This document shows, one piece after another, positions 598-35,085 of a stretch of 64,000 nt of DNA. The position numbers and the translations under genes are program-made. How positions within the stretch are numbered: position 1 is the stretch's first letter; the number at the start of each line of letters is the position of its first letter. Source of the DNA: Alphaproteobacteria bacterium (GTDB lineage: Bacteria > Pseudomonadota > Alphaproteobacteria > Rs-D84); assembly GCA_015062495.1 (NCBI GenBank), contig SUUN01000001.1, forward strand, positions 19,881-83,880, in the 5' to 3' direction. Below the pieces are notes generated by a model. The model made no database searches, was not told the DNA's origin, and worked only from the letters and a program-made list of their open reading frames with translations.

Positions 598-806
598 GAA
601 AAAACCGTCACAGAAATGACGGTCGGGGTGTTAGAAAAATCAGTCATTTGGTGATTCCTGTTGCCTTCGATATATAACAACAGCACCCCGACATGCGTGG
701 GGTAAAAATAACGGTGCAATAGACACCGATATCATCGGATTACGATGCAATTGCACCGAAATGACTGGGCTTTCTAAGGCCCCGAACAAACATCCCTGTT
801 CATTCA
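598..806 (-). promoter_or_regulatory. Structured leader/attenuator copy L1 (long type)
   Basis: Promoter TTGCAA-17-TAAAAT (841-813). Sense strand contains ACAGGGATG, TTCGGGGCCTTAGAAA, GTCGGGGTG and TTTCTAACACCCCGAC. Terminator ACCGTCA-TTTCTG-TGACGGT plus U-tract. Confidence 0.8.
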
Positions 807-850
807 GTGTTTATTTTATGTAATTTTAGATATTTTTGCAATATAAAAAC

Positions 851-876
851 ATCCCCGCCCAAAAAGGTGCGGGGAT
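851..876 (-). terminator. Intrinsic terminator after the small Cys-rich ORF
   Basis: ATCCCCGC...GCGGGGAT hairpin followed by GTTTTT on the minus strand. Confidence 0.65.
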
Positions 877-885
877 TGGTGGATT

Positions 886-993
886 TTATTTATCACAGTC
901 TTTTTTGTTCATTTCGGGCTTTTTATTGCAACCGCCGTCATGTGTGTTTGAACAGTTTTTACATTTGCCTGATTTGTTTTCAGATTTTGACAT
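886..993 (-). CDS. 35-aa Cys/His/Lys-rich small protein (possible metal-binding peptide)
   Basis: Manual translation MSKSENKSGKCKNCSNTHDGGCNKKPEMNKKDCDK*. AAGGA RBS upstream and a terminator directly downstream. Confidence 0.6.
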   Translation of the reverse strand: MSKSENKSGKCKNCSNTHDGGCNKKPEMNKKDCDK

Positions 994-1138
994 TTTTCAT
1001 CCTTTTGTTAATGTTTGTTTTTGTTGTGTCCGGACGTAAAAATAATATCGTGCGGGGGGCAATATCACAATACGCGTGTTTTCCCAAAAAAAGTATTTGT
1101 AATTTTAGTGAATGTACATTAATATCAATGGCGTTGTT

Positions 1139-1215
1139 CGGGGTGTAGCTCAGCCTGGTAGAGTACTTGCATGGGGTGCAAGGGGTCGCAGGTTCGATTC
1201 CTGTCACCCCGACCA
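1139..1215 (+). tRNA. tRNA-Pro(GGG)
   Basis: Cloverleaf CGGGGTG...CACCCCG-A-CCA; anticodon arm CTTGC-ATGGGGT-GCAAG. Confidence 0.95.
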
Positions 1216-1223
1216 TAAAAATT

Positions 1224-1250
1224 AAACCGTCGCGTTTGCGACGGTTTTTT
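1224..1250. terminator. Bidirectional intrinsic terminator (tRNA-Pro / rne)
   Basis: AAACCGTCGC-GTTT-GCGACGGTTT flanked by A and T tracts between convergent genes. Confidence 0.85.
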
Positions 1251-1251
1251 C

Positions 1252-3045
1252 TTAACTGACCAATTTTTGCCAGAAAGTTTTCTTTTGTGGTTGTTTTTTG
1301 CGTTTGCGACGTTGGGCATTGACTGTGGTCCGTTTTGCATCAACGTGCTGGGCATTTTTGCGTTTTGCATCGGTTGATGGTGCGTATGCCCCCAGCAAAT
1401 CTTCGGTTTTATTCTGTTCAGGTGCAACACGCTGAATCGAATATTGGTCAATGTTCATCAGGCTGTCATCGCCAACAATCACAATTTCGGTTTCGAATTT
1501 GGATTCCATTTCGGCCAATTCGGCACGTTTGTGGTTCAACAGATATACTGCGACATCGGTTGGGACGGTCATGATGATTTTCTGAGCCGCCTTGGCTAAT
1601 AATTTTTCTTGCAAGTGGCGGAACAGAATAATCGCGGCCGTCTGAATCGATGGTACAACACCCGCACCCATACAGTGTGGACATGCGACGTATGATGATT
1701 CCATGAAACTGCTGCGCAGGCGTTGACGCGACAACATCAATACACCAAAGTTGTTGATTTTTGCAACCTGGGTGCGGGCGCGATCGCGTTTCATAACTTC
1801 GCGCATTTTCAGTTCCAATTTGCGGTTGTTCTTTTCTTCTTCCATGTCGATAAAGTCAATCGCAACAATGCCGGCCAAATCGCGCAGACGCAATTGCAGG
1901 GCGATTTCTTCGGCCGCTTCCAGATTAGTGTTCAGGGCCGTTTGTTCAATATCTTTTTCCTTGATCGCGCGGGACGAATTAACGTCGATTGTTACCATGG
2001 CTTCGGTCTGGTTGATAACCAGTGAACCGCCCGATGGTAATTGGACGTATGGCCCGTGTAGACCTTCGAGTTGTTTTTCAACGCCGGCCTTGACCATTAA
2101 TGGAACGCCGGCATCTTTGTAGTGTACCAACTGTTTGCGGGGTGCGCGGCCGTACATTTGGATAAAATGCTGTTTAGCGGCATCAAATGCTTCTTCGCCC
2201 TGGATAATCAGTACGTCTTCTTTGTCGCTTAGAAAATCACGAACGACACGGCGCAACAGGGAATCTTCGGTGTGAATTGTGACCGGGGCGACTGATTCCA
2301 GTGTTGTTTTGCGGATTTCATTCCACAAATTTACCAGGTAATCATAGTCGGCGGCAATGTCGGCCGATGCCGCGCCCATGGCGGCGGTACGCAGAACAAC
2401 GGTCATGCCCTTGGGGATTTTCAGACCGTGCAGAACATCGCGCAGACGGGCACGTTCAGATTTATCAGAAATTTTCTTGGAAATGCCATAACTGTTGCGT
2501 TTACGTGAATTTGGCATCAGAACCGCGAAACGACCCGCCAATGACAGATATGTTGTCATTGATGCACCCTTTTGACCGCGTTCTTCTTTGACGCCCTGGA
2601 CCAGCAAGATTTGTTTTGGTTTGATAACGTCCTGGATTTTGAATTCACGTGCGCGTTTGGCAAATTCTTTGTTGTCTTCGCCGGCACTGTGGTCGTCATA
2701 TTCGGCGACTTCGTCTTCTTCGTCGTTTGGATCGTCGTCGTCGTCAACAATGTTGGCGTGCGCCAATTCCAGCAGTTTCTTTTTCTGTTCAGCAGTTACC
2801 TGGTAATAATCAGGGTGAATTTCAGAGAATGGTAAAAATCCATTTTTCCCAGTCCCATAATCAACAAATGCAGCCTGTAAAGATGGTTCAACGCGAATAA
2901 CCTTGGCCAGATAGATGTTGCCCTTAATCTGGGGTTTGGTGGTGGTTTCAACGTCAAAGTCTGATACGCGGTTAGTTGATGTATCGACAACTACGACACG
3001 TGTTTCTTCCGGGTGGACTGCATCCACATATATTTTTTTTGACAT
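1252..3045 (-). CDS. rne: Ribonuclease E/G family (catalytic domain, short C-terminus)
   Basis: KGNIYLAKVIRVEPSLQAAFVDYG S1 domain with an acidic insert, DFIDM catalytic motif and CPHC Zn-link. Start moved to MSKKIY at 3045. Confidence 0.95.
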   Translation of the reverse strand: MSKKIYVDAVHPEETRVVVVDTSTNRVSDFDVETTTKPQIKGNIYLAKVIRVEPSLQAAFVDYGTGKNGFLPFSEIHPDYYQVTAEQKKKLLELAHANIVDDDDDPNDEEDEVAEYDDHSAGEDNKEFAKRAREFKIQDVIKPKQILLVQGVKEERGQKGASMTTYLSLAGRFAVLMPNSRKRNSYGISKKISDKSERARLRDVLHGLKIPKGMTVVLRTAAMGAASADIAADYDYLVNLWNEIRKTTLESVAPVTIHTEDSLLRRVVRDFLSDKEDVLIIQGEEAFDAAKQHFIQMYGRAPRKQLVHYKDAGVPLMVKAGVEKQLEGLHGPYVQLPSGGSLVINQTEAMVTIDVNSSRAIKEKDIEQTALNTNLEAAEEIALQLRLRDLAGIVAIDFIDMEEEKNNRKLELKMREVMKRDRARTQVAKINNFGVLMLSRQRLRSSFMESSYVACPHCMGAGVVPSIQTAAIILFRHLQEKLLAKAAQKIIMTVPTDVAVYLLNHKRAELAEMESKFETEIVIVGDDSLMNIDQYSIQRVAPEQNKTEDLLGAYAPSTDAKRKNAQHVDAKRTTVNAQRRKRKKQPQKKTFWQKLVS

Positions 3046-3250
3046 TTTGTAATCCTTTTGTTTTGGCGTTGTATGCAATGGCAACAATCCGTCCCCGTGG
3101 GGCGTCCAAGCCCATGCCAAGGGATTGCGCCACGATAACCATCAGCGCCATGCGAATTGTTGAAAATAGTGATAATACAAACACTTATTATAGCCCCATA
3201 TTCATACACGGGTTTTATTCTAACATGCCATTATATAGTTCGCAAGGTAT

Positions 3251-4273
3251 TTATTTTCTGACGCGTATTTCAGATTTTATACGGTTGATTTTTGCAGGTA
3301 TTTTTTCTTTGGCTTCGTTCAGCCAACGTTTCATACGGGAACGCAACCAGCGTTCATAGATAAAGAACAAACTGCCCATGCCAATCAGTGGCAAAACATA
3401 ATAAATTATGCGATATGCCAACAGTGCGCCAAATATGTTAGCCTTGTCCACGGTGTCGGGCAGGGCGACCAAAAATACCGTTTCAAATACGCCGATGCCA
3501 CCGGGAACTTGGCTGAAAACGCCGGTCGATTGGGCAATGGCAAACAGTCCCATAAATACAACAAACGGTATTTTTACAAATGGGGTCAGACAGAAATAAA
3601 GTACCAGACCGGCCAGAATACTGTCTGTTATGCCCAGGATTGTTTGTGTAAATGCCATGCGTGTTGATGGTATCTGGAATTTTAATTGTCCGATTTTTAT
3701 GCTTTTTTTATGAAAGAATATTGTGGTCGCAAAATATACCAACAATGTGACCAAACAAAATATAAATAATGCGTTGATGCCAATACTGGCGCCGACCGAG
3801 TTCTGAAACAGCGCATGTGGGACCAAGAAATAACTGATGACCACAATGGCGGATGCCCCCAGGAAATATGTAAAGCCCGATATAGTCAGCATTTTTACAA
3901 TGTCGCCACCGCGAATGCGCCACCGTGTATACAGACGATATCGAATTGCGCCGCCACTGACCACGGCGTGGCCGGCGTTGTTGCTGATTGCAAAGCCCAG
4001 CATCCCCGCCAACATCCATTTCCACCATGAAACGCGTCCGCCAACATAGTTTAACGCTAAATAATCATACAGGGACAGCGTCAAATACCCCAGCATACAT
4101 GCCACGCATGCCATCGCCAGGTTCATAAATGGAATATCTAATATTGCGTGTGCGATGTCGGACAGACTGTAATCACGCAATTGCCACCACAGCATACCGG
4201 CGGCCAATATAAAAAAGAAAATGCCTGAGTAACTGATTACCTTTTTAATCAGGCGTTTTGTCTGTGCTGACAT
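3251..4273 (-). CDS. Lysylphosphatidylglycerol synthase TM / MprF flippase-like membrane protein (UPF0104)
   Basis: Multi-TM protein with SGGAIRYRLY and QVPGGIGVFE...LLAYRIIYY motifs. Start MSAQTK at 4273. No synthase domain. Confidence 0.85.
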   Translation of the reverse strand: MSAQTKRLIKKVISYSGIFFFILAAGMLWWQLRDYSLSDIAHAILDIPFMNLAMACVACMLGYLTLSLYDYLALNYVGGRVSWWKWMLAGMLGFAISNNAGHAVVSGGAIRYRLYTRWRIRGGDIVKMLTISGFTYFLGASAIVVISYFLVPHALFQNSVGASIGINALFIFCLVTLLVYFATTIFFHKKSIKIGQLKFQIPSTRMAFTQTILGITDSILAGLVLYFCLTPFVKIPFVVFMGLFAIAQSTGVFSQVPGGIGVFETVFLVALPDTVDKANIFGALLAYRIIYYVLPLIGMGSLFFIYERWLRSRMKRWLNEAKEKIPAKINRIKSEIRVRK

Positions 4274-4415
4274 TAAAATCCTTTTACAAGTGTAATAGGA
4301 TAACAATTTTATAAACAAAATCAATCTATAAATAAAATCTGGTGGGGGATTGGGCGGTTGCTTTTTATTTATCAAAGCAATTGAATATACCAAAATTATT
4401 GTGTATAATGTGTTG

Positions 4416-4555
4416 GCATTGGGAAACTGGTGTGAGGGTTCAAAGCCTCGTAAGGGATACTCCAACATTGGTTGGAGGGTTGTGAATATATTGAATAAGC
4501 ACACTATTACTCTTAATAGCTTTGAACCTCCAACCGCCTTTTGTGCGGTTTTTTA
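4416..4555 (+). promoter_or_regulatory. Structured leader/attenuator copy L2 (compact type)
   Basis: Promoter TTGAAT-17-TATAAT (4381-4409). Segments GAGGGTTCAAAGC (4434), CTCCAAC (4460), GGTTGGAGGGTT (4470) and GCTTTGAACCTCCAACC (4519). Terminator ACCGC..GCGGT-TTTTT. Confidence 0.8.
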
Positions 4556-4585
4556 TTTAACAAAATAAAAAAAGGGAGGATTTAA

Positions 4586-4804
4586 ATGGCAACACTGTTG
4601 GTTGATGCGCGATATTTTGGTAATTATTTGCGCATGGCGCGAAATTCAATGAATATCACGCGGTTTGAATGTGCAAAATTATTAGGTGTGTCACATTCAG
4701 AATTGATTAAGATAGAAAACGGCAAGGTTTTAATGCCCGATAAAATAATTCAAAAGGTTATGACGAACGGTATGGCGATGATTTTATGTAAACGACGCAA
4801 TTAA
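4586..4804 (+). CDS. XRE-family helix-turn-helix protein
   Basis: FGNYLRMARNSMNITRFECAKLLGVSHSELIKIENGK fits the XRE HTH pattern. Strong GGGAGG RBS. Confidence 0.85.
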   Translation: MATLLVDARYFGNYLRMARNSMNITRFECAKLLGVSHSELIKIENGKVLMPDKIIQKVMTNGMAMILCKRRN

Positions 4805-4830
4805 AAATCCCGCCATTTGGCGGGATTTTT
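4803..4830. terminator. Bidirectional intrinsic terminator
   Basis: AAAAATCCCGCC-ATTT-GGCGGGATTTTT between convergent genes. Confidence 0.85.
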
Positions 4831-6241
4831 AATTCTGAAAGAAACGGTTAAATATTTTTTCGTTTACTTCAATTGGATATTCACGCATCAGGAATGAATT
4901 GTAATCATCCATTATGCCTGATTTTGACATGGTTTGCATTTCATTGCGCAAATCAGCCATCTTTTTTGTGTCCATTTTTGGCGCAATTGAATCTTTGATA
5001 TTCAATACATAGAATGCGTCCGATGATGGAACAATTGATTTTTCGCCCGCGTCGCCACGGAATGCGGCAACCAACACGTCGGTTGGTGCGCCCGATGTAC
5101 GTGACACAGTTGCGGATTTTCCGTTTGCCAATTTTCCGTTTGATTTAAAGTCTGTTAAAACTTCGTTGGCGCGGACGTATGCCTGTTTTTTCTGTTCGGC
5201 GCGTTTCCAATCACCCGTCAATGATTTTTTGACAGATTCAAATTCCGCCGTGTGTGATGGCGTAATTTTGTTTACGCGCAAGAATACAAAACCATCCTTG
5301 GTTTCAATCATTTCACTTTCCAGTTCGGCGTCCATATCAAATATTTTTGCCATCATTGTATCCGTCAGAACTTTGTCCACAGGGCGATGGTCGCGATCAA
5401 ATGTGCCCAGGTCAACATATTTTGCGCCATGCGTCTTGGCGGCGTCCGCCATTGGTTCGCCGGCGATGATATCGTCTTCGAATTTAATGGCGATGGCATA
5501 GCCTGCATCATATTTGTCTGGTTGTGACATTTCAGCCGGAATAATCACATACGACACATTGCGTGTTTCTGGGACGATTTGTGGGTTTTGTTTGTAATAT
5601 TCGGCCAATTGTTCATCCAAAGGTGCGGCAACATCAAAATCTGAATATTTAATTGTTGCGTATTCGATTTCGCGTTCCCCATAACGTGCATCGTATGCCG
5701 CACGCACTGCAAATTCAGGCACAGGTACATCAACCCCGACCGCGCCCAATACCATAGAACGCAATACATTGCCACGCAGGACGTCGGCAAAGGCAGCCTC
5801 GGAATAGCCGGAATTGTTTAAAACCGTGTCGAATGCCAGGGTGGAAAATTCGCCGTTGACCTGAAATTCTGGGAATGAACGAATTTCGTGGGCAATGCGT
5901 TTGTCGCTGACCACGAACCCCAGGTCATCTGCGCGGTTTTCCGCCATCTGTTGGGTTGTCATTTTTGTCAAAATTTGTTTGGAAAAAGCGTTTTGGGTTG
6001 CGGTGTCTGTATAGATTGCGCGTTGTTCGTCCCGGCTTAACTGGGCCAGGGCACGCGATTTTTCCAGGTTAAATTCCTGGGCGGAAATTTCTGTGTCGCC
6101 AACGTGGACCAGTGTGTTATCGTTTACAACGTTGCCAAAAATCCATTCGGCAACACCCCAACCAACGAATGAAAATGCCAAAATGCTGATTAAAATCTTG
6201 GCAACTGGTTTTTCTGATGCATTTCTTAAATATTCTAGCAT
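4829..6241 (-). CDS. SurA N-terminal domain / PpiD-like periplasmic chaperone
   Basis: MLEYLRNASEKPVAKILISILAFSFVGWGV N-terminal anchor and SurA_N-type helical domain. Adjacent to tpiA, as is common in Alphaproteobacteria. Confidence 0.8.
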   Translation of the reverse strand: MLEYLRNASEKPVAKILISILAFSFVGWGVAEWIFGNVVNDNTLVHVGDTEISAQEFNLEKSRALAQLSRDEQRAIYTDTATQNAFSKQILTKMTTQQMAENRADDLGFVVSDKRIAHEIRSFPEFQVNGEFSTLAFDTVLNNSGYSEAAFADVLRGNVLRSMVLGAVGVDVPVPEFAVRAAYDARYGEREIEYATIKYSDFDVAAPLDEQLAEYYKQNPQIVPETRNVSYVIIPAEMSQPDKYDAGYAIAIKFEDDIIAGEPMADAAKTHGAKYVDLGTFDRDHRPVDKVLTDTMMAKIFDMDAELESEMIETKDGFVFLRVNKITPSHTAEFESVKKSLTGDWKRAEQKKQAYVRANEVLTDFKSNGKLANGKSATVSRTSGAPTDVLVAAFRGDAGEKSIVPSSDAFYVLNIKDSIAPKMDTKKMADLRNEMQTMSKSGIMDDYNSFLMREYPIEVNEKIFNRFFQN

Positions 6242-6310
6242 TTGTTCCCCTTTTGCGATACCATAGCAAAACGATATGACAAAAAGCAATTAAAAAAAAG
6301 GGAATTTCAA

Positions 6311-7632: not shown

Positions 7633-7806
7633 GACGCAGGCGACTGTGTTGGGGCGTAAGAACCTCGAAATTTGTGGTGTCCGTGGGGACAAAAAATACC
7701 TCCAACAAATTGGTTGGAGGGTCGCGAATATATTGAATAAGCGCGCTATTTTCCACAAGTTATAGTTCTTAACCTCCAACCGTCTGCTTTGTGACGGTTA
7801 TTTTTT
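7633..7806 (+). promoter_or_regulatory. Structured leader/attenuator copy L3 (compact type)
   Basis: Extended -10 TGA-TATAAT (7618-7626). Segments GTTGGGGCGTAAGAAC (7648), CCTCCAAC (7699), GGTTGGAGGGT (7712) and GTTCTTAACCTCCAACC (7765). Terminator AACCGTC..GACGGTT-ATTTTTT. Confidence 0.8.
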
Positions 7807-7825: not shown

Positions 7826-8716
7826 ATGCGATTAACATTTGGGGTTTTAATGTCGCTGATGGTGGGGGCGGCGCATGCAAACACCGACCTGGCCGCGGCG
7901 ATTGAAAATGTCCGCACCGCATGCGGAAACATCAGTGTGGAATTATCGGACATGAAAAAAATGGCGGGTATAACAACCGCCGTCACCGGTGTTGGCACGG
8001 TCGCTGGTGGCGTTGCACTGGGGACAGGTATTGCCAAGGCGGGTGTTGATAAGGAAATAGAGGCCATGGAAAAATTACCTTTATTGACAATTGCAAATGA
8101 GAATGAGTTTGAAACCGCTGTGTTAAATTATGCCAAATCAATAAATCACTCGGTCAATACGGCAATAGGGCATGCTGAAAAGAAATCAAAACAACTGGGC
8201 AATGTTCGTACGGGAACATTGGCAACATCAACAGTTGCCAATATCGCGGGTGCGATTATGTCGGGTACAAATCGGGTAAAGGGTGATTTGAAACAACAAA
8301 TTGATGAATGCTTGGCATCGGTTAAAATATTATCAAATGTTCGTATGCAGGCGCGTATTTCCAAAACTGTCACGGATGCTGATTTGGCACGTGCGGAAAA
8401 TATCATTCATGCATGCGATGCATGGACCACGGTTGATATCAGTTCAATCAATAAACGTTCAACGGGCGCAACCGTATCATCGGGCATTGGTGCGGGGTTG
8501 GGGCTGGCCGGCACAATAACATCTGCATCGGCAAATTCAGACGGTGTTCGTGATGGTGATGCCGACAAAGAAAAGAAATTAAACGCCGCGGCAAATGTGT
8601 TGGCGGGGGGCACAACGGCGGCGGGATTGTCCGCCACAATATTTAACGCAACACAAATAAGTGCAATTAAACGTGCGGCAACGGTTGCCGATGAATGCGA
8701 GGGGGCGCTGAAGTAA
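7826..8716 (+). CDS. Secreted hypothetical protein with Gly/Ala-rich hydrophobic helices
   Basis: Signal peptide ending AHA. Several GxxxG-rich segments (TTAVTGVGTVAGGVALGTG; SSGIGAGLGLAGTIT). Four Cys. Confidence 0.8.
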   Translation: MRLTFGVLMSLMVGAAHANTDLAAAIENVRTACGNISVELSDMKKMAGITTAVTGVGTVAGGVALGTGIAKAGVDKEIEAMEKLPLLTIANENEFETAVLNYAKSINHSVNTAIGHAEKKSKQLGNVRTGTLATSTVANIAGAIMSGTNRVKGDLKQQIDECLASVKILSNVRMQARISKTVTDADLARAENIIHACDAWTTVDISSINKRSTGATVSSGIGAGLGLAGTITSASANSDGVRDGDADKEKKLNAAANVLAGGTTAAGLSATIFNATQISAIKRAATVADECEGALK

Positions 8717-8717: not shown

Positions 8718-9425
8718 ATGAAAAAAATAGCTTTGTTTTTCTTAACTTTTATATTTTCAACTAATGTGTTTGCGAGTCAACAAACCAGTAACGAAATAGA
8801 ATTAAATACCCCTGTACGTTGGTATGCCAAGGCCTTGAGTAATGCCATATTCAAAATGGTTTATCAATCCAATCAGGATGCAGATGGGGCAGAACATGCC
8901 TCCGCAATCAGAAGTGAATTTTTGCAAACCTTGGATGTAAAAGATGGTGTTGTACTGATTAGCCCTGCTGAATTTATAGATAAATGTATGTCTGTATATC
9001 AAGCGTTTGATGCATCTACAAAATGTTCGAATGCGTTGATGGATGCTGTTCATTTTCATAACGAACTTGTCCAATCGTTTGCGAACGCAAATGCGCTGAA
9101 TGATAGAAATACAAAAATAGAGTGGCAATTCCGGGTTTGGTATAGTGCATTAAGCGTCGTTCTTGATTTGGATTTAGATCCGTTAGTGAATATATTTAGC
9201 GATTATATGAATACTGTTAACAATACAGCCTCGTTAAATGAGTGGTTGTCAGAGTGTAATAGAGCCATGCAATTTATTTCTTCAAGCAATACACCGTATC
9301 ATAAAGATGCCGTTGTTAGAATGCAATCTCATGACTTTTCGTGTCAAAAATATATAGAAGCGCTGGAGCAAAAATACAATGAATTTAGGGCGGCATATCA
9401 TACTGAAACAACGATAAAATTATAA
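8718..9425 (+). CDS. Secreted hypothetical protein
   Basis: MKKIALFFLTFIFSTNVFA signal peptide; starts 1 nt after the upstream stop codon. Confidence 0.75.
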   Translation: MKKIALFFLTFIFSTNVFASQQTSNEIELNTPVRWYAKALSNAIFKMVYQSNQDADGAEHASAIRSEFLQTLDVKDGVVLISPAEFIDKCMSVYQAFDASTKCSNALMDAVHFHNELVQSFANANALNDRNTKIEWQFRVWYSALSVVLDLDLDPLVNIFSDYMNTVNNTASLNEWLSECNRAMQFISSSNTPYHKDAVVRMQSHDFSCQKYIEALEQKYNEFRAAYHTETTIKL

Positions 9426-20231: not shown

Positions 20232-20972
20232 TTATTGTTGCCCCGCATAACTGCATGGGCTGTCCAATTCGAACGAACCAATATCGTCCCAGTATGTGCC
20301 CGCAGGCATAATGCATGCGGTTATTTTTATTGCGCCGATTCCAGTTGTAGTGCCATATGCGGGTGTTTTTTTATCGTCGCTATAATGACCCGAAATTTCG
20401 GGGCATCGTACGCATTTGTCGGAATCCATATAATATCCAATGTCGCAACCGCATGCAGACCAGGTATTCAGGTCGGGGGTGGTCGAATTGGCGATTGTGC
20501 ATTTTGTGCATGTGTTATAGTATTTATAATATCCCGCCTTGCATGCGGTAAAGGTTTTTAGAGGGGGGCTTTTGGTGGCGTCGTATTCAAAATATCCGAC
20601 GTCGTTTAAACCATAATATATGGCGTCTGGCAGATAGCATTGGTCGGCATTGGTGGCGCCGATGTTGCTGGTTTTGTATGCGATTTTGTCGCGCGCCGCG
20701 TTGGTGTATAACGTGTTGTTGTCAATGGTTGCGGCGGGACATTTTTCGCATGTTTTTGTGCCATAATATCCGGTATTGCACTTTAATCCCGCTGTATTTG
20801 AACAGGTGTCGTAAGTGGTGTAATCTGTGGGGCATTTTATGCATTCGTATTCTTTGGATTGTTCTGTTTCGAAATATGGGAAATATCCATCATTGCATTC
20901 TACGCTAAAGCCCGTTGCGTCGGTTATGCCGATGCACATTATTATGCCGATAATGGTGGCTGTGATTTTCAT
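20232..20972 (-). CDS. Secreted Cys-rich protein (GCC2/GCC3 / ephrin-receptor-like repeats)
   Basis: Signal peptide; CxxGYY..CxxCP repeats; C-terminal ITACIMPAG..D.GSF..C.Y module. Confidence 0.85.
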   Translation of the reverse strand: MKITATIIGIIMCIGITDATGFSVECNDGYFPYFETEQSKEYECIKCPTDYTTYDTCSNTAGLKCNTGYYGTKTCEKCPAATIDNNTLYTNAARDKIAYKTSNIGATNADQCYLPDAIYYGLNDVGYFEYDATKSPPLKTFTACKAGYYKYYNTCTKCTIANSTTPDLNTWSACGCDIGYYMDSDKCVRCPEISGHYSDDKKTPAYGTTTGIGAIKITACIMPAGTYWDDIGSFELDSPCSYAGQQ

Positions 20973-20998: not shown

Positions 20999-21237
20999 AA
21001 ACAAAACCACCAAAAAACTGTATGGTGGTCGGGGTGTTAGAAAAATCATGAAAAAGAGTGATCCCGTCGGCCTTTGGGGCGAAACGCCCCTGTGGTATAA
21101 CCGACGGCACCCCGACAATACGACGGGAAAGACACAAACAATTTTGTGTTTGCGTGTATATGGATTACAGTATTTGTTATCATACCGCTTTTTCATAGGC
21201 TTTTCTAAGGCCCCGAATACACATCCCTGTATATTCA
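20999..21237 (-). promoter_or_regulatory. Structured leader/attenuator copy L4 (long type)
   Basis: Promoter TTGCAC-17-TATACT. Sense strand contains ACAGGGATG, TTCGGGGCCTTAGAAAA, GTCGGGGTG and TTTTCTAACACCCCGAC. Terminator ACCACCA..TGGTGGT-TTTGTTT. Confidence 0.8.
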
Positions 21238-21338: not shown

Positions 21339-23552
21339 TTATTCGGAATAGTGGCAGTTTTCGCCATATTCCCAATTGCCGGTGTCATCGGATTCCGAAT
21401 AGCCCGCCGGGATAAAGCAATCGGTGATGGCGGCTGGGGTGTTGGTGGCTTGATCAAATGTTGTATGGGCAACAAATCCGCCCGATGTTGGGCACAGTTC
21501 TGCGCCTGCACCAATCCAATAGGTGGCGGTGCTTCTGTTTGAACCATCAAAAATTATATTTACTGCATCGGCGATGGTATATGTCCCGCCCGGGCAATAA
21601 TATCCATTTGGGCATGGAAAACATGGTTGTAGCCAAGAACCATATGTACTTGTGTTAAGCGCGGCAAAAGTTCCGGGTTGGCATGTGATTGCTGCGGATG
21701 ATACATAACATGATGAACTGCTGCCCATATTCCCGGGACATATAGCGCAAGAAGCGGTCCCAGCCCTGCCAAATGTATTGTAATATGCCCCTTCGGTATA
21801 TACACCGTTGGTTGGCAGTGTTACGGTGCATGGCAGGCATGCATCCACCGATGTTGCGCCGGTTGTGCTGTTATATGTGCCCGCGGGACATGGATACATG
21901 CCGAACATGCCAACCGTTTCGAAAAATTGTGAAACACCGGGGCAATAATATCCCTTGGGACAGGTGTCGCATTTGGCGTCGGTGGTAGAGTTTGATTTGT
22001 AAAAATACGTTCCGGCGGCACAGGTTGTGACGCTGGTGGCGGCGACACAGGTGTTGCCACTTTTTACATATCCATCGTCACAGGTAAAGTATAAGGTTGT
22101 GCCACAATCGCATCCGGACGAGCATGAATAACAGTCGCTTTTGCTGTCTGAACCGGTGGGTGAAGTTCCCGTGTCGCAAATATAATAACAGTCATGTGCA
22201 TTGTCGGGACATGTGGCGGTTTTTTGCATGGTTGAATATCCGCAACTTTTCCGTCCCTGAAAGGTATCGCCACCAACGGTGTATGTTACGCCGGGACAGT
22301 AATAGCCCGCATCACATTCATCGCAACTTTCGCTGCCATCATAATAGTATTTGCCGGCGGGGCATGTGCCGGTTGTTGGCTCGGTTTCGTCGGCTGTCCA
22401 ATTGGCATAGTATGTTTTGTTGCCGGTTGTGCTGGTTGAAATGCTTGTTGCCTTGGTTGAACCGGTGGATGTTGTGTACCAACCATCAAATGTATAGCCC
22501 GAACAAGATGCCGGGGTTGGCAATGTGACTGGCAGGCTGGATGCCGTATATGTTGTCGGGGTCAGGCCGGATACCGAACATGACGATGGTGCGCCAGACT
22601 GTTTGGAATATGTGATGGTGTACGATGTTTCAACAGCCTGGCATGCAGTAGAAGTTGTTGTCGTAGAACCGCCCGCCAGACCTGTTGTTGTATAGCCAGA
22701 ATTACATGTACACGATGTTGCCGTTGCTGATGATGCAGATGAATTGCTGGGGCAAGTTTTACATGTGCCACTGGACAGAAATTGAGTTGTACTGGTACAC
22801 GATGTGTATGTCTTTGTGCCATCGTCGGTATCGTAAGTAAAAGCACCCGTACTATCTGTGCCATATGCTGTGCCACCGGCTGGTATGCTGCATGCGGCAC
22901 TGGATGTTGCGCCCGTGGATGATGTTGTGGTGTAAAATGGTGATTGATAGGCGTTTGTTGTGTACAGCAGGTTTCCTTCGTCATCTTCTGCCTGGGGACA
23001 ACGAGTACATCCATAATAATTACTGGACGTGCCTATTATTAGGTTTCTGTAATAGCCCTTGGCACAGGTAAGTGTTGAACCCGAGCATGTCGCATAAGAA
23101 CCAGATGATGGACATGGTGCGCATATGTTGTTATATTTATAATAGCCAGAGTTACAGGTGAATGTTGAACTATTGCCACCCGGACATGTTGCATTGTCGG
23201 GACATTTGGTACAGCCAGATGTTCCAGACGAGTTCGCCGTACCGTAATAACCACTGGCACATTTATATGTTGGGGCCCCCAAGGAACACGAACATTGAAA
23301 TTTTGTAGTGCCATTACAGAAATAGCCCGGTTCATTTACGGTGGTTGCCACATAGCCGCCAAGTGTAGTGGTTGTCGTTACGCAAGTGTTGCAGAAATCA
23401 TCGTTGCAATAATAATCATCAGGGGTCGCGTTTGGGCAACCGCTTAGTCCCGCATTCGCACCCGTTAATGGATAGCAAACGGTTGATGCGCCCCATGCCG
23501 TTGTGCCAAGGCAAATTGCCAATGTGGTGAATAGTATGGAAAGTTTTTTCAT
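21339..23552 (-). CDS. Secreted Cys/Thr-rich protein with ephrin-receptor-like repeats and an InlB B-repeat (Listeria-Bacteroides repeat)
   Basis: Signal peptide AWG; many CPAGxY repeats; YTFDGWYTT...NKTYYANW B-repeat; C-terminal ITDCFIPAG..DDTGNW..C.Y. Confidence 0.85.
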   Translation of the reverse strand: MKKLSILFTTLAICLGTTAWGASTVCYPLTGANAGLSGCPNATPDDYYCNDDFCNTCVTTTTTLGGYVATTVNEPGYFCNGTTKFQCSCSLGAPTYKCASGYYGTANSSGTSGCTKCPDNATCPGGNSSTFTCNSGYYKYNNICAPCPSSGSYATCSGSTLTCAKGYYRNLIIGTSSNYYGCTRCPQAEDDEGNLLYTTNAYQSPFYTTTSSTGATSSAACSIPAGGTAYGTDSTGAFTYDTDDGTKTYTSCTSTTQFLSSGTCKTCPSNSSASSATATSCTCNSGYTTTGLAGGSTTTTSTACQAVETSYTITYSKQSGAPSSCSVSGLTPTTYTASSLPVTLPTPASCSGYTFDGWYTTSTGSTKATSISTSTTGNKTYYANWTADETEPTTGTCPAGKYYYDGSESCDECDAGYYCPGVTYTVGGDTFQGRKSCGYSTMQKTATCPDNAHDCYYICDTGTSPTGSDSKSDCYSCSSGCDCGTTLYFTCDDGYVKSGNTCVAATSVTTCAAGTYFYKSNSTTDAKCDTCPKGYYCPGVSQFFETVGMFGMYPCPAGTYNSTTGATSVDACLPCTVTLPTNGVYTEGAYYNTFGRAGTASCAICPGNMGSSSSCYVSSAAITCQPGTFAALNTSTYGSWLQPCFPCPNGYYCPGGTYTIADAVNIIFDGSNRSTATYWIGAGAELCPTSGGFVAHTTFDQATNTPAAITDCFIPAGYSESDDTGNWEYGENCHYSE

Positions 23553-23582: not shown

Positions 23583-23829
23583 AAAACATGGCCACCAAAT
23601 GTGGTGGTTGGGTCATCAGAAAAATTATGAAAAAGAACATCAACGACGGTGTATAAAATCAACCGTGTGATTTTTTATAATCAACAACATTCCCCCGATA
23701 AGCACGTCGGGGCAAAATACAAACGTTCGCATGCGCGTAACGATTGCGTGTGTGGATTCCAGTACTTGTTATCATACCGCTTTTTCATAGGCTTTTCTAA
23801 GGCCCTGAATGCATGTCCCCATGCACTCG
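23583..23829 (-). promoter_or_regulatory. Structured leader/attenuator copy L5 (long type, weaker terminator)
   Basis: Promoter TTGTTT-17-TATACT. A 40-nt block (23766-23805) is identical to L4 (21174-21213). CCCCGA..TCGGGG hairpin; terminator CCACCA-CATT-TGGTGG. Confidence 0.75.
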
Positions 23830-23889
23830 GTATTCAGTATAATTTATAAAATGGATAAAAACAAGGGTAAAAATTACCCTTGTTATCTT

Positions 23890-27741: not shown

Positions 27742-28383
27742 ATGATTTACGGCTATATACGTGTGTCAACAGACCATCAAACAACAGAAAACCAGCGTTT
27801 CGAAATCAAGCGTTTTTGCGAAAAACAAGATCTGGTCATAGATTGCTGGATAGAAGAGACGATTTCATCAACCAAGGATTTGAGCAAGCGAAAATTGGGA
27901 CGATTGCTGCGCCGGATTCAAAAAGATGACCTGATTATTGCGTCTGAATTGTCGCGATTGGGGCGTAATTTATTGCAAGTAATGAGTATTTTGCATCATT
28001 GTATGGATGTTGGGGCAAAAATCTGGACGATTAAGGATAATTACAGGCTGGGGGCTGATATTACGTCCAAAGTGTTGGCGTTTGCGTTCGGGTTGTCTGC
28101 GGAAATTGAACGAAATCTGATTTCGCAACGAACCAAAGAAGCGATTGCGCGTGTCAGGGCCGAAGGAAAACGTGTGGGACGGCCGCTGGGCAGTCGCAAT
28201 ACATATAAATTAGAGGGGCGCGAAAGATACATATCGCAAAAATTAGGTGATGGGCGTTCACGGTATGAAATCGCACGACGTCTGCGGGTGCATCGTGATA
28301 CATTGGCCCGGTTTATCGAAGACCGAGAAATTCAGCCAGAATGTAGTGTCGAACAAAACCAAACGCCGGTCTTAAAACTGTAA
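27742..28383 (+). CDS. mpi: Serine recombinase of the Mpi (master DNA invertase) family
   Basis: MIYGYIRVSTDHQTTENQRFEI, SELSRLGRNL, WTIKDNYRLG.DI.SKVLAFAFGLSAEIERNLISQRTKEA match the Bacteroides Mpi pattern closely. C-terminal HTH. Confidence 0.85.
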   Translation: MIYGYIRVSTDHQTTENQRFEIKRFCEKQDLVIDCWIEETISSTKDLSKRKLGRLLRRIQKDDLIIASELSRLGRNLLQVMSILHHCMDVGAKIWTIKDNYRLGADITSKVLAFAFGLSAEIERNLISQRTKEAIARVRAEGKRVGRPLGSRNTYKLEGRERYISQKLGDGRSRYEIARRLRVHRDTLARFIEDREIQPECSVEQNQTPVLKL

Positions 28384-30480: not shown

Positions 30481-31332
30481 ATGGCATTGCCAACATTTAC
30501 AATGAAACAGTTGATGGAAGCGGGTGTTCATTTCGGTCACCACACACGTCGCTGGAATCCATTGATGACACCATATGTTTATGGCGTAAAAGATAAAATT
30601 CATATCATTAATTTGAACAAGACTGCGCCTTTGTTGCACCGTTCTCTGGTTGCGTTGGAAGCAATCGCGGCCGCCGGTGGCAAGGTTCTGTTTGTTGCGA
30701 CCAAGCATCAGGCAAAAGATATTGTGAAAGATGCAGCAGAACGTTGTGGTCAGTACTATGTTAACAACCGCTGGTTGGGTGGTATGTTGACAAACTGGAC
30801 AACAGTTTCACAGTCAATTCGTCGTCTGAAGAAAATGGAAGCGGATATCGCAAATGCTGACAAATTGGGTCTGACCAAGAAAGAAGTCGGCGTTATGACC
30901 AAAGAAGTTGAAAAACTGCGCGATATTTTCGGTGGTATCTTGGATATGCACGGCGTTCCACAGGCGATGATTGTTATTGATGTGCCACGTGAAATGAACG
31001 CGGTTCGTGAAGCGAAAAACCTGGATATCCCAACAATCGCGATTTGCGATACAAATGCAAATCCAGAAATGGTCGACTATCCAGTCCCAGGTAATGATGA
31101 CGCGGCACGCGCAACACAGTTGTACTGTGACCTGTTCGTGGATGCGATTTTGTCGGGTATCGAAAAACGTTTGGGCGGGGCGGCCGGTAAAAAGGTCGAA
31201 TCTGATATGCGTGCAGATGCAGCCGATGAATTAGAAGATGAAATCAAGGAAAAAGAAGCCAAGATTAAGTCAAAAACATCTGAAGCCCGCGCAGAACGTC
31301 GTGGTAAATTGGCAGATAAAGCCGATAAATAA
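30481..31332 (+). CDS. rpsB: 30S ribosomal protein S2
   Basis: MKQLMEAGVHFGH, RWLGGMLTNW and PGNDDA motifs. Start at 30481. Confidence 0.98.
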   Translation: MALPTFTMKQLMEAGVHFGHHTRRWNPLMTPYVYGVKDKIHIINLNKTAPLLHRSLVALEAIAAAGGKVLFVATKHQAKDIVKDAAERCGQYYVNNRWLGGMLTNWTTVSQSIRRLKKMEADIANADKLGLTKKEVGVMTKEVEKLRDIFGGILDMHGVPQAMIVIDVPREMNAVREAKNLDIPTIAICDTNANPEMVDYPVPGNDDAARATQLYCDLFVDAILSGIEKRLGGAAGKKVESDMRADAADELEDEIKEKEAKIKSKTSEARAERRGKLADKADK

Positions 31333-31347
31333 TACTGGGGTTGTGTT

Positions 31348-31620
31348 ATGGGTAAAAACGATAAAACACAAGAACAGTTAATTAAAACATCCGTCGGAAA
31401 CCAGTATATGGCAACATATGCTGGGGTTCTGGGGGATGCGAAATACTATGAGTGCAAAGATCCGGTAAACGGTAAAACCGTTGGTTTTGTTGCGACAATT
31501 ATTCCGGGTAAGTTTGGGCCAATGTGTTTGGACTATATTGCGGCGTCGAAACGTGCGCGCAATATCGTAGACAGTACTGGGTCATGGTGGACACGGATAT
31601 TGTTTGCAAGACAGAGATAA
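31348..31620 (+). CDS. Hypothetical protein (90 aa) between rpsB and tsf
   Basis: Fills the gap exactly, has a GGGG RBS-like motif and typical codon usage. Confidence 0.7.
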   Translation: MGKNDKTQEQLIKTSVGNQYMATYAGVLGDAKYYECKDPVNGKTVGFVATIIPGKFGPMCLDYIAASKRARNIVDSTGSWWTRILFARQR

Positions 31621-31648
31621 TAAACTTTAAACAAATGGGGGATTCAAA

Positions 31649-32518
31649 ATGGCAGAAATTACAGCAAAATTGATTCAGGAACTGCGCGAAAAAACAGCCG
31701 CAGGTATGATGGATTGTAAAAAAGCCCTGGTTGAAAATAATGGTGATATCGAAGCCGCAGCAGATTGGTTGCGTCAAAAAGGTATCGTAAAAGCAGCGTC
31801 CAAGGCGGGCCGTGTTGCAGCGTCTGGTTTGGTGACGGTTGTGAAATGTGACGATATGGGCTGTGTCGTTGAATTGAATGCAGAAACAGATTTTGTTGCG
31901 AAAAATGAAAAATTCCAGAAGCTGGTTGCCGATGTCGCAAACAAGGCAATGGAATTAAAGGGTGATTTTGATGCAACAATGAGTGCGGTTAAAGATGATA
32001 TCGCGGCGACTATTTCCACAATTGGTGAAAATATGAATCTGCGTCGTATTGCCAGTGTTCAAGGCGATAAAATCTTTACATATATTCATAACGCATTGGT
32101 TCCAGGTATGGGCCAGATTGGTGTTGCGGTTGCAATTAATGGTGATGATGCAAAAATCGATGAAATTGGTTCAAAAATCGCAATGCATATTGCAGCGAAC
32201 AAGCCTGAATTTATGACAATTGCAGATGTTGATCCGGTTGCGGTTGAACGCGAAAAGAAAGTGTTCATCGAATCGGGTGCGACGGCGGGCAAACCAGAAA
32301 ACATTGTCGAAAAGATGGTTGAAGGTCGTATCAAGAAGTACTATGGCGAATCCGTTCTGGAAGAACAGCCATTCGTTTTGGACCCTTCCAAGGCAGTTAA
32401 GGATGTTGTTGCCGAAGCTGGCGGTAAGTTGGCTGGCTTTGCGTTCTTTGTACTGGGTGAAGGTATCGAAAAACGTGAAGACAACCTGGCCGATGAAGTG
32501 GCAAAAATGTTGAAGTAA
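31649..32518 (+). CDS. tsf: Elongation factor Ts
   Basis: LREKTAAGMMDCKKAL, ELNAETDFVAKN and KIAMHIAA motifs. Confidence 0.98.
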   Translation: MAEITAKLIQELREKTAAGMMDCKKALVENNGDIEAAADWLRQKGIVKAASKAGRVAASGLVTVVKCDDMGCVVELNAETDFVAKNEKFQKLVADVANKAMELKGDFDATMSAVKDDIAATISTIGENMNLRRIASVQGDKIFTYIHNALVPGMGQIGVAVAINGDDAKIDEIGSKIAMHIAANKPEFMTIADVDPVAVEREKKVFIESGATAGKPENIVEKMVEGRIKKYYGESVLEEQPFVLDPSKAVKDVVAEAGGKLAGFAFFVLGEGIEKREDNLADEVAKMLK

Positions 32519-32583
32519 TAAAAAATCCCCCGTTTGGGGGATTTTTATTTGAATTTTTTTTATCTTTATATTATAATCTGCCT

Positions 32584-32839
32584 TGAACCAACAGGGATGT
32601 TGGGTCAGGGACGTAAGAAATCCTTTATCATTGCGATGTTCTTTGGGGCATTGAATCCGACTTTGGCAAAATAAATAAACCAGGGCGCGGATGCGCTTTT
32701 TATTTTGCAAAAATTCGCCCGATTTTTGTCGGGGGGTCCGTGGCTATACAACAGCGCATACGCGTAAAGGCCACGGAGGTCATTCAATGATATGATTTTC
32801 TTAACCCCCTGACCGTCATTTCCATGACGGTTTTTGTTT
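32584..32839 (+). promoter_or_regulatory. Structured leader/attenuator copy L6 (long type)
   Basis: Promoter TTGAAT-17-TATAAT (32549-32577). ACAGGGATG (32591), TCAGGGACGTAAGAAA (32605), GTCGGGGGGT (32728), TTTCTTAACCCCCTGAC (32797). Terminator ACCGTCA..TGACGGT-TTTT. Confidence 0.8.
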
Positions 32840-32864
32840 AATTAAACGAAAAAGGGAAAAGAAA

Positions 32865-34529
32865 ATGAAAAAACACTTTATTTTAACTTCGTTGGTTGCA
32901 ATTGCCATGTCTTGCCCAGCCGTGGCGGCAACAGATGTTACATTCAGTGGTATGTATAACGGTGACGCATCAAAGATTGCCGATGGTGTTGCAGATACGA
33001 CATATGATTACGTAAAATCAGACGGTACAACAGCGTCGGGTGTTGCGTATGATGCAAACCCGGTGTTGACCGATTTTACATATCAGGATGTTGATGGGGC
33101 AATCAAAAGCCTGGCCGACGGAACGCCAGATATATCGGTATATACCGGCACAACAACCGCGTCGGGCGATATCGTGAGCACACAGACAGTCGCCGCAGGG
33201 GAAACAGCAAGCCGTGATAATTACACCTATAAAAACGGTGCGGGTGAAGTTGTAACACTGGGCGAAAATGCACAGGATATGGTTGCAACGCATACTCTGT
33301 CCGATTATGCAGGTGGTGCAGTTGCCACGATTACAAATGGTACATCTGATACAGCAATTGATGGTTCAATGTATTCGTTTGAATATGAAGGTCAAACCTT
33401 AAAATTATCATCGGATGGGACACAATATACACTGAATGGTATCCCCCAGGAAGAACCAACCTCAGGCGCATTGTTTGATTTGTTGACAGAAGTTCGTGGT
33501 GCATTTGATAACGATAAGACAGCAATTGAAAATGCAAAAACCACAACAGCTGATAATTGGACAACAGAACAAACCAACTTTGACGCAGCAAATGATGTGT
33601 TTGTCGCAGATAGCAATAAAATTGCGGAACTGAATGGTTATTTCGAAACTGTTGGTGCTGCAACTGATGCGTTGGAAGCAGCCAAGACAGCCCAACAGGT
33701 GGCGGCAGATAAATACGCAGAAAACGGTGCATTGTTCCAGGCGGCGAAAGACGTCTATGATGCGCCAATTCTGGAAACAATCACAAATGGTGCGAATGAA
33801 GCAATTGATGACGCGTTGGCCGAAGGTGGTGCAATCCGTTCTGAATTGGATGTAAACGCAACAGCAATTGCAGACAATAAAACTGCAATTGAAACTAACG
33901 CTGCGAATATTGAAGTAAACGCGACAAATATTGCTGCAAATAAAACTGCAATTGAAACTAATGCTGCGAATATTGAAGTAAACGCGACAGCAATTGCAGA
34001 CAATAAAACTGCAATTGAAACTAATGCTGCGAATATTGAAGTAAACGCGACAAATATTGCTGCAAATAAAACTGCAATTGAATCCGAAGTTGCACGCGCA
34101 ACAGCGGCTGAAATCGAATTGGATGGAAAAATTGCCCAAAATACATCAGCAATTGAAGAAGAAGTTGCAAATCGTATCGCGGGTGATGAAATGACATTGG
34201 CATCGGCCAAGGCATATGTCGATTCCAAGAACGAATTGGCATTAAAGTCTGCATATGATTATACAGACAGCAAGGTTGACGCATTGGAAGATGAACTGTC
34301 GGCCGGTATTGCCAGTGCCGCGGCGATGTCTTCGGTTGCGGTGTCTGGCGTAGGCAAGGGTGAAGTGTCTGTTGGTGGTGGCTATGGCTATTACAACAGT
34401 CAATCCGCGATTGCATTGGGTGCGGCGATGGGGCTGACCGATAACTGGTCTGTGAATGCAGCGGCCGGTTTGGCAGATTCAAATGTCACATTCCGTGCAG
34501 GAACAAATTACAAGTTCAAATTGTTTTAG
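32865..34529 (+). CDS. Trimeric autotransporter adhesin (YadA-like C-terminal anchor)
   Basis: Signal peptide; coiled-coil stalk; anchor AGIASAAAM..SVGGGYGYYNSQSAIALG..RAGTNYKFKLF. Confidence 0.9.
   Translation: MKKHFILTSLVAIAMSCPAVAATDVTFSGMYNGDASKIADGVADTTYDYVKSDGTTASGVAYDANPVLTDFTYQDVDGAIKSLADGTPDISVYTGTTTASGDIVSTQTVAAGETASRDNYTYKNGAGEVVTLGENAQDMVATHTLSDYAGGAVATITNGTSDTAIDGSMYSFEYEGQTLKLSSDGTQYTLNGIPQEEPTSGALFDLLTEVRGAFDNDKTAIENAKTTTADNWTTEQTNFDAANDVFVADSNKIAELNGYFETVGAATDALEAAKTAQQVAADKYAENGALFQAAKDVYDAPILETITNGANEAIDDALAEGGAIRSELDVNATAIADNKTAIETNAANIEVNATNIAANKTAIETNAANIEVNATAIADNKTAIETNAANIEVNATNIAANKTAIESEVARATAAEIELDGKIAQNTSAIEEEVANRIAGDEMTLASAKAYVDSKNELALKSAYDYTDSKVDALEDELSAGIASAAAMSSVAVSGVGKGEVSVGGGYGYYNSQSAIALGAAMGLTDNWSVNAAAGLADSNVTFRAGTNYKFKLF
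33852..34082 (+). repeat. Coding tandem repeat, 63-bp unit x about 3.7 (126-bp higher-order repeat)
   Basis: VNATAIADNKTAIETNAANIE alternating with VNATNIAANKTAIETNAANIE. Confidence 0.9.
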
Positions 34530-34607
34530 TTGAATAAATCCCGCCAAATGGCGGGATTTTTTTAAGAGCAAATAGCAAAGCGCAAATAGCAATTAAATAT
34601 TAAGACT

Positions 34608-34777
34608 CGTCATTCCCGCTTGGTTTCACCCACGCAAACATTTGTTTGCGCAGGGCCCGGGGCGGGAATCCACTGCGTCGCAGACATTTTTATGCAGTCC
34701 CTGCGGGGCAATAGATACCTGCCTGGTATCACCCACAAAAATTTTCAATTTTTGCGGGGCCCGAAGCGGGTATGACG
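34608..34777. repeat. REP/RPE-like palindromic element with nested inserts
   Basis: CGTCATTCCCGC..GCGGGAATCCA ... GATACCTGC..GCGGGTATGACG. Each arm holds a TGGT(T/A)TCACCCAC-hairpin-GGGCCC insert. Confidence 0.75.
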
Positions 34778-34855
34778 ATTTTATTTTTTTACTTAAATAA
34801 ACTTTTATTTATCTAAGTAATTGAATTTATAACAACTATAGCGTATAATTGTTTT

Positions 34856-35085
34856 GTTGCCGGGTGTTCCGGTGATGGGGTGTCGAAACCCTTGCTCTAA
34901 GCGTCTGTGATATTAATTGCACGCCGGGTGGCGTGTTTTTATGCTGTGGACGAGAATTTATAACTCCTGGTCTTTGCTGGTCAGGAGGGTTGTGAATAAT
35001 GCGCGCCTTGTGCGCAAAATAAGCACACAATTCTTAGAGATTGTTTCGAACCTCCTGACCGTCTGATTATTGACGGTTTTTTATT
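34856..35085 (+). promoter_or_regulatory. Structured leader/attenuator copy L7 (compact-type core)
   Basis: Promoter TTGAAT-17-TATAAT (34821-34849). GGGGTGTCGAAAC (34877), CTCCTGGTC (34964), GGTCAGGAGGGTT (34979), GTTTCGAACCTCCTGACC (35043). Terminator ACCGTC..GACGGT-TTTTT. Confidence 0.8.

Follow-up and report, generated by a model that had tools for sequence, protein, structure and literature searches.

A 64,000-nucleotide (nt) stretch of contig SUUN01000001.1 (positions 19,881 to 83,880; assembly GCA_015062495.1) from an Alphaproteobacteria bacterium of the GTDB lineage Rs-D84, here called the window (45% G+C), carries seven promoter-to-terminator leaders, L1-L7. Each comprises a -10 box, a 5' domain and a short hairpin, S1:S3, together with a three-way junction and an intrinsic terminator about 20-40 nt ahead of the start codon. 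The junction is closed by the helix S3:S4 and bears two hairpins, A and B, and a junction strand of 7-9 nt. The genes behind the leaders encode mostly orphan proteins with secreted-looking N-termini (judged without a signal-peptide predictor), and further a YadA-anchor adhesin (L6), a protein of the Listeria-Bacteroides-repeat type (L5) and a 72-amino-acid XRE-like regulator (L2); the housekeeping genes between the leaders include those for RNase E/G, PGK, S2, EF-Ts and SSB. We examined the A-rich internal loop of hairpin A, which a preliminary description had read as a conserved AUA / AAG motif and as the sensing element of a transcriptional switch. The loop proves to be a genuine module with sharp limits and strong conservation, already visible in the Rfam consensus of the small RNA sRNA-Xcc1 (RF02221), and its constant core across all leader classes is AUA facing RAA.

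A constant AUA/RAA core on a variable stem

All additional copies of the leader were retrieved by routes independent of hairpin A. MAFFT alignments of six leaders were inconsistent with the structure, and separate covariance models were built instead for a long type (R1, from L1, L4 and L6) and a compact type (R2); R1 recovers six good copies in the window at 25-127 bits, plus L5 at 18 bits. A scan of a genome collection with a 5'-domain pattern gave only eight real loci, in Alphaproteobacteria and Candidatus Enterousia metagenome-assembled genomes, and a metagenome scan with a junction-strand/S4 pattern gave at least 120 matches, with about 47 bearing the RNA among the matches listed. The long-type set, to which these two scans supplied the additional copies, comprises 44 distinct cores (alignment A7). 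The compact-type set comprises 16 distinct copies, the new ones obtained from contigs that encode homologues (58-96% identity) of the XRE protein behind L2. Viral contigs were scanned with a pattern confined to both strands of a single pseudoknot (GTGTCGAAAC and TTTCGAAC, 140-170 nt apart), which returned 31 stretches, or 26 distinct sequences, made up of 22 real elements and four chance matches in coding DNA; counts for this phage type refer to 21 parsed copies. RNA runs (four, faecal or gut) contributed only low-depth assembled contigs of relatives, lacking usable ends, and the few contigs that cross the L6 terminator could be of DNA origin.

In the long type, the nine-pair lower stem of hairpin A is 95% paired and eight of its nine pairs have changed on both sides, with 32 distinct 5' strands among the 44 cores, and its columns hold about 0.2-1.6 bits of information (mean about 1). 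The loop columns hold 1.4-2.0 bits and the apical part, which ranges from 7 to 37 nt and is free in sequence, 0-1.1 bits. The covarying stem under a conserved loop that the preliminary description had proposed is therefore borne out in the larger set, and loop conservation lies far above chance. The 5' loop strand reads A-U-A-N-A-A-C-A, which holds more conserved letters than had been listed before: A1 and U2 occur in 44/44 copies and A3 in 43/44, position 4 is free, and A5 (38/43), A6 (40/43), C7 (38/43) and A8 (40/44) follow. On the 3' strand the first letter is A in 32, G in 7 and C in 1, the second is A in 40/40 and the third is A in 39/40. The pair closing the stem below the loop is U:G in 19, U:A in 12 and another combination in 9. 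The distance from the start of the hairpin to the AUA is 9 nt for 34 copies, 8 nt for seven and 10 nt for three. In L1 and two metagenomic copies four letters cap the AUA directly and are followed by GAA (AUA-UAUY-GAA). Several apical helices of the long type are only 2 base pairs (bp) long (about -0.6 kcal/mol) beside an 8x3 loop, and the loop itself must therefore contribute structure.

The best register for the compact type is [stem]-G-A-AUA-(x)-xAA-UAA-[stem]. Here the G, the AUA and the UAA are present in all 16 copies and the A in 14/16, while xAA is GAA in eight, AAA in five, UAA in two and CAA in one; the closing pair is U:A in eight, U:G in seven and C:G in one. This register gives perfect stems in loci L119c and L167, both of which are poorly explained by the earlier stem-AAUA..UAAG-stem register, and in L019c it needs one extra unpaired U. 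The phage type takes the form [3-bp covarying stem]-G/U-A/G-AUA-NNAYA-[CCC..GGG]-RAA-UAA, with AUA and RAA in 21/21 copies and UAA in 18/21. The five-nt bulge NNAYA is missing from L1-type, compact and L7-type copies.

The core common to the three classes is thus AUA facing RAA (R = A or G), joined in two of them, compact and phage, by G-A / UAA. The AUA half of the motif named in the preliminary description persists in the additional copies (43/44 long, 16/16 compact, 21/21 parsed phage) and the 3' xAA is just as constant. The AAG half does not stand as a unit: its G is the first base pair of the stem below the loop, with U as partner, and is G or A about equally often, and the AAG positions are non-equivalent between types, being UAA plus the first stem pair in compact copies and RAA plus the closing pair in long ones. 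The six hairpin strings that had been quoted were all found where they had been placed (Table 1). As a separate observation, two metagenomic loci (L089, L098) keep the junction core including AUA/RAA and have the normal 5' domain (P1/P2) replaced by unrelated sequence; their hairpin-B loops have no upstream complement, in keeping with the altered 5' domain.

Table 1. Leaders, hairpins and neighbouring features of the window
Feature	Position	Strand	Quoted hairpin string	Description
L1 core	597..692	-		97.1 bits; junction helix S3:S4, hairpins A and B, junction strand, terminator; upstream of gene 577..2
L1 hairpin A	658..683	-	683..658 (-)	CUGUUG-UU-AUA-UAUC-GAA-GG-CAACAG; AUA/GAA core capped directly by 4 nt (terminal-loop variant)
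L1 terminator	597..650	-		long-leader terminator
L2 core	4471..4556	+		96 bits with R2; upstream of 72-amino-acid XRE-like helix-turn-helix gene 4586..4804
L2 hairpin A	4480..4504	+	4482..4502	compact; [UGU]-G-A-AUA-UAUU-GAA-UAA-[GCA]
L3 core	7713..7805	+		covariance-model match; upstream of genes 7826..8716 and 8718..9425
L3 hairpin A	7722..7746	+	7724..7744	compact; [CGC]-G-A-AUA-UAUU-GAA-UAA-[GCG]
L4 core	20999..21116	-		114.5 bits; upstream of gene 20972..20232
L4 hairpin A	21064..21107	-	21107..21064 (-)	long; CCGUCGGUU-AUACCACA-[GGGGCG UUU CGCCCC]-AAA-GGCCGACGG
L4 terminator	20999..21050	-		long-leader terminator
L5	23584..23699	-		degenerate copy; 18.1 bits; upstream of 737-amino-acid repeat protein 23552..21339
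L5 region	23584..23840	-		5' domain and rearranged hairpin A region
Serine recombinase gene	27742..28383	+		resolvase
L6 core	32728..32838	+		covariance-model match; upstream of YadA-anchor adhesin gene 32865..34529
L6 hairpin A	32737..32777	+	32737..32777	long; UCCGUGGCU-AUACAACA-[GCGC AUAC GCGU]-AAA-GGCCACGGA
L6 terminator	32793..32838	+		long-leader terminator
GC-rich repeat	34590..34770	+		two copies of about 80 nt
L7 core	34980..35084	+		covariance-model match; upstream of gene 35112..35822
L7 hairpin A	34990..35028	+	34992..35026	compact with apical hairpin; [UGU]-G-A-AUA-A-[UGCGCG..UGCGCA]-AAA-UAA-[GCA]

L5, in front of the 737-amino-acid repeat protein, has the appearance of a copy in decay. 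It keeps the 5' domain, but S4 has decayed, the region of hairpin A shows rearrangement or duplication (UUGAUUAUAAAAAAUCA followed by UUGAUUUUAUACACCG) and the terminator has no clean U-run. The 72-amino-acid XRE-like gene behind L2 recurs with 58-96% identity at loci L167-L179, where the neighbours differ from contig to contig (RuvC, RmuC/IF-2, S15), and a leader stands directly upstream of it wherever the contig extends that far, that of L176 being cut by the contig end. Elsewhere in the window, a resolvase gene lies among the housekeeping genes, and the GC-rich repeat (..CACCCAC..N..GCGGGGCCCGRRGCGGG..) lies between the adhesin gene and L7.

Relation to sRNA-Xcc1 and C4 antisense RNA

At Rfam thresholds only tRNAs match in the window. 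Below them, L6 scores 38.1 bits against RF02221 over the full model (gathering score 53) and is the only window copy that this model detects, the others giving no match up to E = 5. In the other direction, searches with the window-derived models hit phage elements: about 25 for the compact model R2, at the places where RF02221 matches and with a best score of 34.9 bits (E = 4e-5), and nine for the long model R1. The phage copies, which were retrieved without the loop, score 57-74 bits against RF02221 (57-86 for phage controls overall), and 11 of 12 viral loci tested exceed its threshold. The window leaders are sub-threshold relatives, a distant variant, of sRNA-Xcc1.

Both share a three-way junction with a closing helix of about 9 bp, a hairpin 1 with AUA-NNAYA / RAA around an apical hairpin, a hairpin 2 and then a junction strand of 6-9 nt, which in window leaders and phage copies alike pairs with the loop of an upstream hairpin. 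In the leaders, the junction with its internal-loop hairpin 1 is 97.5% paired, and none of 500 shuffles reached the observed covariation. The RF02221 consensus gives AUACAAuA...GAA, largely in upper case, in the equivalent hairpin, and this is the best-conserved block of the family. The long type matches this loop as AUA-N-A-A-C-A / RAA but lacks the G-A / UAA flank and has a 9-bp lower stem, whereas the compact type keeps AUA / xAA-UAA and has lost the 5-nt bulge. Setting differs as well. sRNA-Xcc1 is a small RNA borne by integrons, phages and islands in Xanthomonas and others (Rfam RF02221), as a rule ahead of a gene of the antirepressor type; it is regarded in the literature as a trans-acting small RNA of unknown mechanism, with multiple copies in Xylella and one copy upstream of an ORF6N gene in APSE phages (PMC12189769; bioRxiv 10.1101/2020.03.17.996009). 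The window leaders, in contrast, are chromosomal, multicopy, placed among housekeeping genes ahead of secreted or surface-protein, adhesin and XRE genes, and end in an intrinsic terminator, whereas the phage copies examined precede an antirepressor gene, and their terminal hairpin has no U-run and is followed by sites at the ribosome-binding site.

Phage Aaphi23 illustrates this last arrangement. Its RF02221 element, at 86 bits, is flanked by gene Q and by ant, the antirepressor gene (element and target sites at L135 1349..1620). Upstream sites GUCGAAAC and CAAACAG correspond to the junction strand (UUUCGAA) and to the loop of hairpin 2 (CUGUUUG), and both recur at the ant ribosome-binding site (AUCGAAA, CAAACAGGAG), a layout shared with the c4 antisense system of P1/P7. 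This suggests that RF02221 represents no more than the central third of an immunity module of the c4 kind. C4 antisense RNA (RF01695, P1/P7-type phages), for which no match was found in the window, likewise has a closing stem (17 bp), a hairpin 1, a hairpin 2 and a CC-rich tail, its a'/b' antisense segments being the hairpin 2 loop and the 7-nt junction strand. Its hairpin 1, however, is a plain UUCG-capped stem with no internal loop, and because the architecture is otherwise shared, it is by the AUA/RAA module that the sRNA-Xcc1 type differs from C4. Each leader also has a mid-leader GC hairpin followed by a U-run (e.g. GGCGCGGAUGCGCC UUUUUAUUUUG; 32680..32710, 34915..34945 and L135 1400..1447), which itself looks terminator-like; the Aaphi23 equivalent comes after the promoter that lies immediately 3' of gene Q, in the manner of a tR'-type terminator.

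Pairing partners and folding of hairpin A

Two arms of the junction have pairing partners within the leader. The hairpin-B loop has a private, perfect complement of 7-9 nt just 3' of the second 5'-domain hairpin in 40/44 long leaders (mean 7.4 nt compared to 4.8 for shuffled sequences), and hardly any two copies have the same sequence there. In every window copy the loop of this second hairpin is in turn paired with the junction strand, compensating changes included, and the pattern of the phage scan was based on that pairing. For hairpin A of the long leaders, complementarity to the 5' domain was at background for both the loop (5.4 versus 4.9 shuffled) and the apex (4.75 versus 4.36), as was complementarity of the loop to the 60 nt downstream (3.9 versus 4.1). 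Hairpin A is therefore the only free arm of the junction, and Watson-Crick pairing in cis does not explain its conservation.

Individual contacts were also considered and set aside. Pairing of the loop letters CAACA with the 3' strand of P1 fits L6 and L006 on inspection but not L012, L010b or L1. Docking of the P1 loop GGGA on hairpin A as a free GNRA tetraloop was rejected because GGGA pairs with a downstream AUCC element with compensating changes (GGGAC:GUCC; GGGA:UCCC); that L3 and L7 have no GGGA-type P1 loop also counts against it. In a subset of leaders, the junction strand and the 3' arm of hairpin B are complementary to 8-10 nt over the start codon (L6 32855..32870, L001, L044, L019, L103, L119; AAGAAAAUG, GAAAAAUCAUG; mean 6.4 versus 5.1 shuffled), which could be a remnant of c4-like translational targeting.

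The preliminary description had further proposed that binding at the loop stabilises S3:S4 and turns the genes on. Folding, with energies that exclude pseudoknots, draws hairpin A identically in the terminator fold and in the junction fold of six window leaders, and because its fold is the same in both alternative states it is predicted not to be a switching element or competing helix. Any effect of the loop on S3:S4 would thus be indirect, through tertiary contacts or a bound factor. In the compact leaders, S4 shares 3-4 nt with the 6-7-bp terminator stem, and the state with terminator and S1:S3 comes out as the more stable by 1.3-2.3 kcal/mol. In L1, L4 and L6, the long leaders, S3:S4 overlaps the 8-9-bp terminator stem by 3 nt only; the minimum-energy fold contains both helices, and the energies of the enforced states are less than 1 kcal/mol apart. 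Because of this short overlap and predicted coexistence, S3:S4 is by these models not a classical antiterminator in the long leaders, and activation of the genes does not follow there from stabilising S3:S4. The switch as proposed is therefore not supported by the folds.

Possible roles of the loop

The loop is unpaired by Watson-Crick rules, near-invariant and without a complementary partner, and for these reasons a binding or recognition surface is a fair reading of it. That much of the earlier idea of an unpaired sensing element holds; nothing in the data identifies the loop as the sensor. We tentatively favour a structured, non-Watson-Crick, purine-stacked internal-loop module that serves docking or recognition rather than being the signal sensor itself. 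The core would probably be a stack of A.A, U.A and A.R pairs between 5'-AUA and 3'-RAA, pre-organised as the invariant signature of hairpin 1 in an sRNA-Xcc1-type three-way-junction scaffold. In this scaffold, the hairpin-B loop and the junction strand each bear a copy-specific "address" complementary to the 5' domain, giving two pseudoknots, and hairpin A is the free arm, whose A-rich loop stands equally far from the junction in all members of a class. The junction fold may need the surface thus presented, either for A-minor type packing on a neighbouring helix or as a handle for a trans-acting factor. This proposal rests on the invariance of the letters, on a position that is fixed per class while the apex is free, and on 2-bp apical helices that are too weak on their own. 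The GAA/UAA of two classes, moreover, resembles the UAA/GAN internal loop, whose description bears a title that refers to long-range tertiary interactions (Lee, Gutell and Russell 2006, cited in PMC2275092). That motif is defined by 5'-UAA and 5'-GAN strands between two helices with an AAA cross-strand stack and, like the loop-E / UA-handle modules, is an A-rich internal loop between regular helices; in compact and phage copies 5'-GAA faces 3'-UAA beside the lower stem, a likeness of sequence only, and the long type has no UAA strand. On inspection, two other modules did not fit: no class has the GA/AG tandem of a kink-turn (3-nt bulge, tandem sheared G.A / A.G) after the bulge, and likeness to the 11-nt GAAA tetraloop receptor (UAUGG ... 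CCUAAG) is partial (UAU.., ..UAAG), its GG/CC pairs and register being absent.

Several observations weigh against this proposal. No partner helix or receptor for the loop was identified, and its variable positions showed no covariation with anything examined. Between loop and junction there are about 9 bp in long leaders as compared to 3-4 bp in compact and phage copies, so that one common docking geometry is not obvious. Finally, C4 has the same overall architecture with a plain hairpin 1, which implies that the scaffold can exist without the module; this fits an added recognition function no worse than a purely architectural one.

Another reading, possible though less probable, is that the loop binds a trans-acting protein (an RNA chaperone, nuclease or antitermination factor) and that this binding is the regulatory input. 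A constant loop on a variable, covarying stem, present in many paralogues per genome, free to vary at its apex and without a partner in cis, is what such a site would look like. Similarly, the antiterminator hairpins of the RAT (ribonucleic antiterminator)/BglG-SacY systems and the two-hairpin sites of ANTAR systems carry a conserved loop on a variable stem near a terminator in several operons per genome; in those systems, however, the bound hairpin overlaps the terminator, whereas hairpin A overlaps nothing, and ANTAR-type hairpin loops are absent from the window leaders. Hfq binding follows an AAYAA/ARN rule, and in phage hosts Hfq could be the protein, given the AAYAA / (ARN)n-like run in the 3' strand R-AAUAA-R. 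In line with this, neighbouring phage RNAs at the same locus type include isrK, an Hfq-binding RNA by its Rfam name, and a Xylella study reports Hfq signatures for sRNA-Xcc1 homologues (PMC12189769). Long-type leaders, on the other hand, have no AAUAA run, and a tblastn search with E. coli Hfq found no match in 410 kilobases (window and related contigs), a weak negative. As the core is shared by phages of gammaproteobacteria and by reduced alphaproteobacteria of the gut, only a near-universal protein would serve, and the stem under the loop is restricted in length, a restriction not needed for a hairpin that merely binds a protein on its own.

We consider it rather doubtful that the loop is all or part of a small-molecule or ion pocket, with the leader as a riboswitch, as in the earlier reading. 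Invariant unpaired nucleotides in an asymmetric loop (8x3 in long leaders), in a multicopy regulon with a terminator before surface-protein genes, would suit a ligand pocket. But hairpin A stands outside the competing helices and folds alike in both states, the bulge NNAYA is dispensable and leaves a 3x3 core that is small for a pocket, no curated Rfam riboswitch or aptamer family matched in the window (E up to 5), and the relatives, by their architecture, work as c4-like antisense RNAs. Less likely still is a role in processing or stability, in which RNase E/G or RNase P would recognise the loop and the junction RNA would thereby be released or stabilised. Maturation of c4 RNA involves RNase P processing, the loop is an AU-rich single-stranded patch adjoining stems, sRNA-Xcc1 is detected as a discrete RNA of about 88 nt and an RNase E/G gene lies in the window; RNase E, however, needs less than the invariance of specific letters seen here. 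That the motif is not an RNA feature at all, but AT-rich chance, a DNA operator (e.g. for an XRE protein) or a leader peptide, is highly improbable, even though the hairpins are DNA palindromes and an open frame spans L2. The operator and peptide readings were rejected because the stems keep pairing and not sequence and because the AUA-RAA spacer holds 0-37 variable nt in lengths that are not multiples of three, and the four chance matches of the phage pattern in coding DNA have no motif.

These results narrow the constant, partner-less part of the RNA to AUA / RAA, plus G-A / UAA in two of three classes. sRNA-Xcc1 has been in Rfam since about 2012 with its function unsettled; relatives of it are found ahead of antirepressor genes in phages and ahead of many genes for surface proteins in gut bacteria with small genomes. 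A further and unlikely possibility is that the AUA/RAA loop is the receptor for a universal input (a metabolite, an ion or a near-universal protein), which would make the sRNA-Xcc1 superfamily a signal-responsive RNA class. If so, the class would include the leaders of phage antirepressor genes as well as the multicopy leaders before surface-protein genes in reduced gut alphaproteobacteria, with the free arm as sensor and the two pseudoknots as copy-specific address. The core as defined here offers a precise experimental handle for mutagenesis, pull-down and probing, for which AAG would be the wrong unit to mutate, and if a factor does bind the loop, one experiment could explain regulation in both the phage and the gut-bacterial setting.

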